DNA of 34,848 nt, taken from the IMG/VR virus record IMGVR_UViG_2651869781_000011. One strand, 5' to 3'. The notes beneath the pieces were generated by a model. It saw only the letters and a program-made list of their open reading frames with translations, did not search any database and was not told where the DNA came from. This DNA comes from a virus (Duplodnaviria; Heunggongvirae; Uroviricota; Caudoviricetes). Shown here piece by piece: positions 17,925 to 23,225 of the stretch (positions within the stretch are counted from its first letter, which is position 1; every line of letters begins with the position of its first letter). The translations under genes and the position numbers were made by a program.

Positions 17925-17999
<75 letters not shown>

Positions 18000-18002
18000 A
18001 TA

Positions 18003-18078
<76 letters not shown>

Positions 18079-21360: not shown

Positions 21361-21390
21361 ATAAAAACAAAAAACCCGCCGAAGCGGGTA
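21361..21390 (-). terminator. Intrinsic terminator after the HTH-peptidase gene
   Basis: CCCGC-cgaa-GCGGG stem followed on the minus strand by TTTTTTGTTTTTATTTT, 4 nt after the stop. Confidence 0.55.
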
Positions 21391-21393
21391 TAC

Positions 21394-22500
21394 TCAAACA
21401 ATCTGGAAAATATTTCTTGGATTTGTAATAGGTCTGTTGATGGAGAACAACTCACGAATTAAATCTTGGCTCAAGCCAGTTTTCATAAGAATTCTTAGCC
21501 AGGTTGCATCATCCAGCATTTCAATCGCCTCGGCCAGCATGCCGGGTTCTTCAGGGCGCAAAAGTTCATCACCAGGTTCAACTCTCGTATACCCTCTGGA
21601 ATTAAGATGCATATAGCCAGTTCTTGCCTGTTCCTGGGTCAATAAGCCTAATGCGCTGGCTCGATAAATACACATTTTAAGGCTGATTTTCCATCTAAGT
21701 TTAAATTCAACCAGAGCATTCCAGTCGAATTGCTTACCTCGTATTCGAGGAAATTCTTTAATGAAAGATAACCTGGGAACTAATAAGGCGCTCGAAAAGT
21801 GATCGGCTTGTGATTCCGTAAGTTTATCACCTGTCGTTATGCCCTCATGCATTACTAAATGCCCTAATTCATGACCTAAATCAGAGCGAAATCTACATAT
21901 GCTTTTTTTAACATTGTTCCTGATGATAACAGGCCTGTTATTGTGAACAGTAAAAGCATCAACACGATCATCGACTCCCGTAACATGCGCAACGATTACC
22001 CCTAAACTCTCCGCCAATTTAACCATTGATGATATAGGGCCAAGACCTAAATTCCAGGCACGGCGACAATCTTCTGCCACTCGCTCAATATCATTCGGAG
22101 TAAGTAATTCAGCCCCTGGGTGCTCCGGTATGTTAACGTCAGGAAATTCGATTTCACCTTCAACAGCAGAAATTATAATATTAAGAATCTCAGCCCTGGC
22201 CAATACACTATTAGTCAGCGTTTGAGTCCTGGACTTCTTACTCCGAAAATGGCAGACATCACTTTCCAGAGCGTATTTTCGTTCAGTAAAAAGAAAACTG
22301 GACTTAATCATAAGCGCTGAAGATATTAACTCAAGACATTGCTCCGATGGCCTGCACCCCTTCTCCAGTTTGCTAACGAATTGCTTTGTCTTGCCAATTT
22401 TTTCGGCTAACTCTTCACAAGAAAGCCCAACAGCCATTCTCGCTAGTTTGAGCTTATCACCCCGATACTCAGTGAAGTTATTCACCTGATGTTCCATCAC
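21394..22500 (-). CDS. XRE-family HTH fused to ImmA/IrrE-type zinc metallopeptidase (COG2856-like)
   Basis: 368 aa; N-terminal HTH (KLKLARMAVGLSCEELAEKIGKTKQFVSKLEKG); HEXXH motif HELGHLVMHE; AT-rich; start overlaps upstream gene by ~20 nt. Confidence 0.75.
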   Translation of the reverse strand: MMEHQVNNFTEYRGDKLKLARMAVGLSCEELAEKIGKTKQFVSKLEKGCRPSEQCLELISSALMIKSSFLFTERKYALESDVCHFRSKKSRTQTLTNSVLARAEILNIIISAVEGEIEFPDVNIPEHPGAELLTPNDIERVAEDCRRAWNLGLGPISSMVKLAESLGVIVAHVTGVDDRVDAFTVHNNRPVIIRNNVKKSICRFRSDLGHELGHLVMHEGITTGDKLTESQADHFSSALLVPRLSFIKEFPRIRGKQFDWNALVEFKLRWKISLKMCIYRASALGLLTQEQARTGYMHLNSRGYTRVEPGDELLRPEEPGMLAEAIEMLDDATWLRILMKTGLSQDLIRELFSINRPITNPRNIFQIV

Positions 22501-23128
22501 TGCTCACATCCAAATCTTTATCCTTCGTACGCCGACGAAGAGGCACCTTATTAATCTCCGCTTCGTCAGGGAGTGTGTTATAATCAAGAGGCATAAGCGG
22601 CATCGATGCTGTAGATTGATGAGAAACTATACTAATCTGAGCACCATAAGTATTAAATCCAACAAGAGCTACCTCCCAACGAGGCAGTGTGGACTCTAAT
22701 TCACCATCGCCCTCTTCGGATAAAAAAGGCTCAGCTATGACTCGCCATGTAATATCTTGCTCAGCCTCAACATCACCAAACAATGAGAGCTGCTCATACT
22801 CTACTTTATTTCGACGCAGACGATGTTTCTTTTTGGGGTTATTAATGCAATCTTTGGTAAATTGTAGCGGAACTTTATTTAAAGCAACTACATAGTCCAA
22901 CCCCTTGGAAATCATCTCAAGGCCAGGAATTGCATCTTCATTTTGAATAAGATGATTTCTGACCCAATCATAAGCCCTTACACCTTCAGACCAGTTGCTG
23001 TCTAATGCGTGCTTATGATAGTACAGCTGCTCAAGTACGTTAGCGATCTCCGCCAACAAGTGGCGAACATAGTTTTCAGCAAGATAAGGTTGAAATTCCC
23101 AACAAGGAGCTAACTGATTTTCATTCAT
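22478..23128 (-). CDS. Unknown protein (216 aa), first gene of the two-gene cassette
   Basis: ATG at 23128; acidic, probably disordered C-terminus; no motif I recognise; AT-rich. Confidence 0.6.
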   Translation of the reverse strand: MNENQLAPCWEFQPYLAENYVRHLLAEIANVLEQLYYHKHALDSNWSEGVRAYDWVRNHLIQNEDAIPGLEMISKGLDYVVALNKVPLQFTKDCINNPKKKHRLRRNKVEYEQLSLFGDVEAEQDITWRVIAEPFLSEEGDGELESTLPRWEVALVGFNTYGAQISIVSHQSTASMPLMPLDYNTLPDEAEINKVPLRRRTKDKDLDVSSDGTSGE

Positions 23129-23202
23129 TTCAAGTTTCGCTTTTTTTAGAATTCGTAAACCACATATTTTCGCATTTTTCTATTTTTGTCAACCAGACTA
23201 AT

Positions 23203-23225
23203 GCAAAAACCCGCCGAAGCGGGTT
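23203..23225 (-). terminator. Terminator hairpin downstream of hok
   Basis: CCCGC-cgaa-GCGGG stem followed on the minus strand by TTTTTGC. Confidence 0.5.

Follow-up and report, generated by a model that had tools for sequence, protein, structure and literature searches.

A probable RosmerTA-family toxin–antitoxin moron in the nin region of a lambdoid Escherichia coli prophage, and a conserved clamp-binding-like motif in its toxin

What is a compact, low-GC two-gene cassette doing among the early genes of an Escherichia coli prophage? The question is raised by IMG/VR virus record IMGVR_UViG_2651869781_000011, a lambdoid E. coli prophage whose rightward early operon lies on the minus strand; the whole stretch of 34,848 nucleotides (nt) that was analysed is called the window here, and the cassette lies at 21,361–23,225. 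The original prediction, made from the sequence, had read the cassette as a moron encoding a toxin–antitoxin, abortive-infection or anti-phage module with a protease–helix-turn-helix (HTH) part. Both of its proteins matched models of the RosmerTA system, and we conclude, with a probability of roughly 75%, that the cassette is a RosmerTA-family toxin–antitoxin moron carried by a lambdoid E. coli prophage in its nin region. It is an already catalogued system family (Millman et al. 2022) and not a new type. The original prediction thus pointed the right way, and what it missed was that the family had been named and catalogued. The only new elements are a lead towards a clamp-binding motif in the toxin and a conserved operator.

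The two genes form an operon, toxin first and antitoxin second on the same strand. The rmrT-like toxin gene (22478–23128, minus strand) starts with ATG and encodes 216 amino acids (aa; RefSeq WP_001004956.1). The rmrA antitoxin gene (21394–22497, minus strand; RefSeq WP_000401168.1) encodes 367 aa comprising an XRE-type HTH, an M78 zinc peptidase and a C-terminal region. If it is read from GTG, the rmrA open reading frame (ORF) covers 21394–22500 (minus strand) and 368 aa; the start has the sequence ...GTG ATG GAA..., and the identical copy in RefSeq is annotated from the ATG at 22497. Because rmrA is taken to start at this ATG, the overlap between the two genes is 20 nt. The guanine–cytosine (GC) content of the cassette was 41.5%, compared with 49–50% in the 5-kb flanks, and the GC content at third codon positions was 0.35 and 0.38 in the two cassette genes and 0.46–0.64 in the neighbouring prophage genes. 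Two overlapping minus-strand genes and a GC content below that of the flanking phage genes had both been described before; both descriptions stand, with the start of the second gene shifted.

The assignment to RosmerTA draws on both proteins. The 216-aa protein matched the PADLOC model RmrT PDLC03929 (expectation value (E) 4.6e-25) over profile positions 5–195 of 198, while the 367-aa protein matched RmrA PDLC03943 (E 6.2e-105) and 13 more RmrA models; its matches to the PADLOC models capP (E 1.6e-14) and capH (E 1.5e-4) were weaker. The toxin also matched PHROG 5786, a family of unknown function (E 8e-85), and RmrA matched PHROG 2439, which is labelled 'transcriptional regulator'. Searches of Pfam and NCBIfam with the toxin gave no match, in line with the earlier statement that the 216-aa partner carries no recognised motif, and it is the PADLOC RmrT and PHROG models that do recognise it. 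The locus accordingly has two adjacent, co-oriented genes, an antitoxin that is homologous to RmrA and combines an N-terminal HTH with a zinc peptidase whose HEXXH is intact, and a toxin that falls within one of the catalogued RmrT families. A search of defence-system catalogues was one of the checks that the original prediction had proposed, and the PADLOC matches of both proteins bear out its choice of a toxin–antitoxin or defence module. The RosmerTA anti-phage system was described by Millman et al. (2022), with a verified example from E. coli OLC-716.

The domain structure of RmrA agreed with the predicted fusion of an XRE HTH to a HEXXH-bearing ImmA/IrrE peptidase. The HTH (22288–22461, minus strand; approximately residues 13–70) matched Pfam HTH_3 and HTH_31, the former at residues 16–62 with E 5e-7, as well as SinR and 434 repressor chains in the PDB. 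The Peptidase_M78 (ImmA/IrrE) domain (Pfam PF06114; 21655–21972, minus strand) covers residues 176–281 (E 6.5e-11), with the sequence HELGH at residues 209–213 (window 21859–21873). This HEXXH motif and the downstream ESQAD align to HEXXH and EQDAD in the verified RmrA of E. coli OLC-716, to which the window protein is 29% identical over 301 aa (E 2e-35). RmrA also matched the NCBIfam 'spr1629 family repressor/antitoxin' with E 1.5e-45, under the cut-off of that model.

The cassette is inserted in the nin region directly after the hokD terminator, at a site that is frequently empty. In the Qin prophage of E. coli K-12 the flanks are joined between hokD and rem, with a single copy of the hokD terminator, and the site is also empty in phages HannyBb and mEp460, in PPompW phages and in most E. 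coli, amounting to thousands of genomes. The cassette interior was present in 237 of 5426 complete E. coli genomes (approximately 4%), NCTC86 and O55:H7 CB9615 among them, and 224 of these copies were at least 99% identical, with both genes annotated as intact. A variant of 94% identity likewise lies directly after hokD, and one of 80% identity lies elsewhere in a nin region. The cassette is therefore a true moron, present or absent at its site, as the original prediction had proposed and as the comparison of syntenic prophages that it called for has borne out. One carrier, E. coli FDAARGOS_1249 (NZ_CP069459.1, 1256651–1259677), has a cassette broken by an IS5-family transposase.

The ends of the insert are marked by an exact 20-nt direct repeat, AAAAACCCGCCGAAGCGGGT, with one copy on each side (21370–21389 and 23205–23224). 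Both copies belong to terminators detected by a terminator scan. Upstream is the intrinsic terminator of hokD (23205–23224, minus strand), for which the scan gave a stem at 23225–23208 followed by a T run, and downstream is the terminator of the cassette (21364–21389, minus strand), with a stem at 21389–21374 followed by the T run TTTTTGTTTT. Terminators had been predicted at both ends and were found there; since the exact repeat brackets the insert, what had been read as a strong terminator belonging to the cassette itself duplicates that of hokD.

The distribution of the cassette decides whether it could be an ordinary prophage regulatory pair, that is, an immunity or anti-repressor module controlling induction of the window prophage. 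RmrA-like proteins occur in many temperate phages at no more than 35% identity, many phage records label them cI-like repressors or DNA-binding proteins, and the PHROG 2439 label points the same way. However, a cI-like HTH repressor region of the prophage's own lies at approximately 27.4–28.7 kb, closely related prophages and phages lack the cassette and have its flanks directly joined, and the cassette moves among unrelated backbones (lambdoid nin regions, a Q–holin site, Mu-like phages). Because of the empty sites and this movement between backbones we exclude an immunity or anti-repressor module, to which we would give hardly any chance. The polymorphism of the cassette at its site also excludes the outcome that the original prediction had named as counting against it, a routine regulator pair found in every related prophage.

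The toxin belongs to a family of its own. A profile search of 1.84 billion representative proteins returned 69 matches at E ≤ 1e-3, nearly all of about 200 aa. Close homologues were restricted to Enterobacterales, and the named members of the family, from the Gammaproteobacteria Aeromonas, Vibrio, Pseudomonas and Shewanella, are all annotated as hypothetical. No Pfam domain was found in the 64 aligned family members, no match to the toxin was found by tblastn in 50,697 phage records, and a sequence search of the PDB with the toxin gave none either. Structure prediction was another of the checks proposed earlier: an AlphaFold2 model of the toxin was obtained with a predicted local distance difference test (pLDDT) score of 84, and a fold search with it returned no match. 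Among polar positions, D43, R51, E110, Q113, R129 and E133 are the best conserved across members. A reading of D43, E110 and E133 as a PD-(D/E)XK-type nuclease site was dropped, as no match supported it. The C-terminal tail of the toxin (approximately residues 172–216, window 22481–22612) was predicted with low confidence, yet it is conserved in close homologues (LRRRxKDxDLDVxxNGTSGD/E), and it is a candidate degron or a candidate segment for cleavage or recognition by RmrA.

Wherever the toxin gene was inspected, an antitoxin gene followed it. In 8 of 8 distinct loci, drawn from E. coli, Xenorhabdus, Serratia, Aeromonas, two Vibrio, Shewanella, Pseudomonas and a metagenome, an HTH–Peptidase_M78 gene of approximately 360–376 aa came directly after the toxin gene, usually overlapping it. 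The surroundings of the pair varied: a lambdoid nin region in E. coli and Xenorhabdus, the Q–holin moron slot in Serratia, the Mor–endolysin junction of a Mu-like prophage in Aeromonas, an integrase island with a retron-like reverse transcriptase in Vibrio fluvialis, and, in Pseudomonas, a defence island adjoining Thoeris and a Mrr-type nuclease. In the Pseudomonas genome GCA_000263675.2 (L008, 4614–5725) the rmrA homologue is split into two ORFs of 141 aa and 309 aa downstream of an intact toxin ORF, while rmrA is unbroken, at 370 aa, in the near-identical metagenomic locus L009. The split reflects a frameshift from sequencing or else an antitoxin loss that is tolerated. In both L008 and L009 a second gene, with an M78 peptidase domain alone, lies approximately 700 base pairs (bp) downstream.

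Which of the two proteins is toxic can be judged from relatives that have been studied genetically. Luo et al. (2015, PMC4671572) found that E. coli is killed by the product of the Vibrio mimicus gene vmi480 (VMD_06480), which has 198 aa and an unknown domain; the downstream gene vmi470 (362 aa, HTH and zinc peptidase) neutralises it when co-expressed and cannot be deleted alone (PMC4671572). On the mobilisable island MGIVmi1 a 5-bp spacer lies between the two genes, and res2 lies approximately 600 bp upstream on the other strand (PMC4671572). A prophage pair of E. coli E101 (E101_02645/02644, the former being WP_001179380.1) is 33% and 42% identical to Vmi480 and Vmi470, and its toxin makes clpP essential (Rousset et al.). 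Both pairs are like that of the window in having an upstream toxin of about 200 aa with an unknown domain and a downstream HTH–zinc-peptidase antitoxin of about 360 aa; Vmi480/470 differ from it in their spacer and their mobilisable island, where the window has a 20-nt overlap and a prophage. The link between the window and Vmi480 runs through the V. fluvialis protein P0033. This protein has 199 aa, a 361-aa HTH–M78 gene follows after exactly 5 bp, and a resolvase gene lies approximately 570 bp upstream on the opposite strand. Because it agrees with the Vmi pair in protein lengths, in the 5-bp spacing and in the resolvase upstream, P0033 is a probable orthologue of Vmi480, and Vmi480 would then belong to the toxin family of the window. 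Compared with the P0033 pair (L017, 6001–7691), the window toxin was 27% identical (E 1e-17) and the antitoxin 47% (E 1e-123). Between E. coli and Vibrio, then, conservation is much higher for the antitoxin (47%) than for the toxin (27%), the opposite of the usual expectation for toxin–antitoxin systems, in which the toxins are conserved enzymes. Named copies of Vmi480, E101_02645 or RipA were not among the matches of the toxin-family profile search.

Two further systems have an antitoxin of the same kind. The RosmerTA locus of E. coli OLC-716 is, like that of the window, a two-gene operon with the toxin first and an antitoxin of about 370 aa that carries an XRE HTH and an M78 domain. It differs in that its toxin is unlike that of the window, that the window pair is a moron in a lambdoid nin region, and that its defence activity is a verified one. 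A ΔrmrA mutant of this verified system was unobtainable. In Streptococcus pneumoniae the Rosmer-family system RipAB (Spr1630/Spr1629) has an antitoxin with the same XRE and ImmA-like architecture as RmrA, and RipB neutralises RipA in trans, but only with intact ClpX (PMC12795458).

How the toxin might act is suggested by a short motif. Residues 113–117 of the toxin (22778–22792, minus strand) read QLSLF, a candidate beta-clamp-binding motif; QL(S/D)LF is the consensus bacterial beta-clamp-binding motif (PMC9690074). At the aligned site the family has Q (81%), L, S, L (77%, otherwise F or M) and F, followed by F, G or L and then by a gap-rich acidic linker. The variants observed include QLSLPL, QLSLDL, QLSLAF, QLNLAF, QLTLF and QMSLL. 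The hexapeptide form of clamp-binding motifs is QLxLxL, as in Hda and Pol IV. A penta- or hexapeptide clamp-binding-like motif occurred at the aligned site in 37 of 55 non-redundant members, counts that are not independent because the members are mutually related, and only one match was found elsewhere in 10,553 residues. Among shuffled sequences, 6.5% held such a motif anywhere, and by our estimate one protein of 216 aa would hold an exact QL[SD]LF by chance with a probability of about 4e-4. What would be looked for in a clamp-targeting toxin, QL(S/D)LF or QLxLx(L/F), is present and conserved, and no report of the QLSLF motif in this toxin family was found in the literature searched. The verified RmrT of OLC-716 (Millman Table S2) has at approximately residues 143–148 the sequence QLKLDL, which fits QLxLxL and is followed by an acidic stretch; this may be a chance occurrence (about 1% by our estimate for a protein of that size) or a hint that a clamp-binding motif is common to several RmrT families.

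The pneumococcal system provides a precedent for such a target. RipA interacts with DnaN, the beta sliding clamp, and mutations that suppress the toxicity of RipA fall in the clamp's hydrophobic pocket (PMC12795458), the pocket for which the window toxin carries the canonical motif. RipAB is chromosomal, Gram-positive and competence-linked, the paper describing it mentions no clamp-binding motif in RipA (PMC12795458), and RipA is likened to the window toxin by description. A second precedent, by analogy only, is SocAB of Caulobacter crescentus (Aakre et al. 2013), with the same proposed logic of a toxin that blocks replication by binding in the clamp cleft with a clamp-binding motif, under ClpXP-dependent restraint; SocA is a small ClpXP adaptor, whereas the window antitoxin is an HTH–metallopeptidase, and the two systems are not expected to be related in sequence. 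From the conservation of QLSLF, the RipA–DnaN and SocB precedents and the ClpX/ClpP dependence of Rosmer-like systems we infer DnaN as the target: most likely, the toxin would act by occupying the clamp's hydrophobic cleft and stalling replication. A fuller proposal holds that the toxin family, probably including Vmi480, consists of beta-clamp cleft binders that plug DnaN and freeze host and phage replication, that RmrA together with ClpXP keeps the toxin inactive or degraded, and that the GGTTGAC repeats described below are the operator of RmrA. As a whole this proposal is tentative, and its chances fall somewhat short of even.

The region ahead of the operon is conserved together with the proteins. 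The 66 nt preceding the rmrT start codon (23129–23194, minus strand) consist of two tandem units of approximately 33 nt, GGTTGACAAAAATAGAAAAATGCGAAAATATGT and GGTTTACGAATTCTAAAAAAAGCGAAACTTGAA, each with the pattern GGTTKAC ... AAAAAnGCGAAA, and the first unit provides the –35 element. This element, TTGACA, lies at 23192–23187 (minus strand), exactly where the original prediction had placed a –35-like hexamer, and a putative –10 element, AAATAT, lies 17 nt downstream at 23169–23164 (minus strand). A common layout was found upstream of toxin homologues of Serratia, Aeromonas, Vibrio, Xenorhabdus and Pseudomonas: GGTTGACA is followed at a spacing of 17 nt by a –10 element, and GGTTTAC(A/G), or GTTGAC in its place, comes 32–34 nt past the first repeat. 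E. coli and Serratia have AAATAT as the –10 element, Aeromonas and Vibrio have GATAAT, and a metagenomic member has TATAAT; the Xenorhabdus and Pseudomonas homologues have two GGTTGAC copies 33–34 nt apart. Such GGTTGAC/GGTTTAC pairs, spaced by 32–34 nt, recur ahead of distant homologues whose proteins are only about 20–27% identical. A moron needs its own promoter for expression in the lysogen, and the conservation of these cis elements across genera points to an autonomous sigma-70 promoter from which the cassette would be expressed there. For the same reason the GGTTGAC/GGTTTAC direct repeats are a candidate operator for the HTH of RmrA, which probably autoregulates the operon through the two repeats lying over the –35 element and the transcription start.

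Several points weigh against the reading of the cassette as a RosmerTA pair with a clamp-directed toxin. The window toxin has no similarity to the verified RmrT of OLC-716 (BLASTP E 7, hhalign probability 0.3%), a result that fits the diversity already known among RmrT partners. The toxins of RosmerTA systems differ from one another (the Kita RmrT, for example, depolarises membranes), so that the function of a toxin is not transferable from the family name. The QLSLF motif lies partly inside a predicted helix (residues 108–115) and could be conserved for structural reasons. Vmi480 is linked to the window by architecture and genus and not by a comparison with the Vmi480 sequence. The –10 element AAATAT is weak, and a consensus promoter scan of the window gave no canonical –10 and did not call the TTGACA site; the promoter is retained solely on its positional conservation across genera. 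In the literature searched there was no experiment on the window cassette, and its accession numbers appeared in no paper. Finally, in the PD-lambda-2 system the Xre–peptidase protein is itself the toxic component (Vassallo et al. 2022).

The last point raises the question of whether the roles in the window might be reversed, with the HTH–peptidase as the effector and the upstream protein restraining or sensing it, or whether the pair might exert transcriptional control only, with RmrA as a self-cleaving repressor relieved by DNA damage. In PD-lambda-2 the upstream protein neutralises the toxic fusion (PD-lambda-2B), in a system of three genes with a HigB-like first and a P4-antitoxin-like third (Vassallo et al. 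2022); the window has only two genes between identical terminators. A purely transcriptional role would be in keeping with the operator-like repeats over the promoter, with the weak capP and capH matches of RmrA, and with the proteases ImmA, IrrE and CapP, which act by cleaving HTH repressors. The original prediction had drawn a comparison with ImmR/ImmA of ICEBs1, IrrE/DdrO of Deinococcus and CapH/CapP of the cyclic oligonucleotide-based antiphage signalling system (CBASS). The comparison holds for the pairing of an M78/COG2856 metallopeptidase with an XRE HTH, and beyond this it is an analogy only. There, repressor (with the HTH) and protease are two proteins, and other genes are turned on when the protease cleaves the repressor; in the window HTH and M78 are fused in one protein of 367 aa, the partner has neither an HTH nor a Pfam domain, identical terminators close the cassette on both sides, and no associated effector operon is present. 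Nothing was found that supports the protease switch triggered by DNA damage that had been suggested, and the published relatives point instead to ClpX/ClpP-dependent neutralisation. The genetics of Vmi480/470, RmrA and RipB, in which the upstream Vibrio gene is lethal, the antitoxin gene cannot be removed on its own (vmi470, ΔrmrA) and RipB acts on RipA in trans, disfavour both versions, as does the strength of the RmrA model match (about 1e-105 against 1e-14 for capP). We consider a reversed or purely transcriptional arrangement very improbable.

For a RosmerTA pair with RmrT as the toxin, the relatives Vmi480/470, OLC-716 RosmerTA, RipAB and the E101 prophage pair suggest the following course. 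RmrT would be toxic and would be continuously neutralised by RmrA, possibly by proteolysis and probably with the aid of ClpXP. If another phage infected the cell or the element were lost, the neutralisation would be lifted, growth would stop and the infection would be aborted; judging from its QLSLF motif, RmrT would do so by occupying the DnaN cleft and stalling replication. The same components could serve mainly as an addiction or stabilisation module, or as a stress-responsive growth regulator of the prophage, with a toxin that kills or arrests cells losing or inactivating the element and without any meaningful part in phage defence. The pair is built like a classical type II-like toxin–antitoxin system, the Vmi480/470 relative sits on a mobilisable island, the cassette adjoins hokD, another addiction-type gene, and RipAB acts in competence signalling and not in phage defence (PMC12795458). 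Against this, the verified RosmerTA systems protect against phages, and members of the toxin family occupy prophage moron slots and a defence island beside Thoeris and Mrr. Addiction and defence are not mutually exclusive roles, and we regard a role in addiction or growth regulation to the exclusion of defence as unlikely.

Around the cassette the prophage has a lambdoid gene order. Upstream are genes for DUF1627, DUF977, DUF551 and HokD; downstream are a rem-like gene, genes for DUF968/HNH, RusA and antiterminator Q, two tRNA genes, and the lysis and structural genes. The other side of the prophage carries a cI-like HTH gene and the integrase gene. The tRNAs, tRNA-Gly(TCC) and tRNA-Thr(TGT), lie at 17925–18078 (minus strand) in the late region, just downstream of the gene for antiterminator Q. 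At the equivalent place the related JNEC-KY173 prophage has Arg, Arg and Ile tRNAs.

RosmerTA systems are widespread. The window cassette is a natural E. coli prophage example of this family, and its clean insertion boundaries, together with the isogenic empty site in K-12, make it easy to transplant and test. If the QLSLF motif proved immaterial, the finding would be that of an ordinary catalogued defence or toxin–antitoxin moron. The motif hypothesis is nevertheless specific and cheap to examine, and it ties together the targeting of DnaN by RipA, the essentiality of ClpX/ClpP in the presence of Rosmer-like toxin–antitoxin systems and the lethality of Vmi480. If it is true, a clamp poison gated by ClpXP would explain why clpP becomes essential with the related E. 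coli prophage toxin–antitoxin pair, and a widespread Gram-negative RosmerTA subfamily would form, together with RipAB and SocAB, a convergent class of clamp poisons under ClpXP control.

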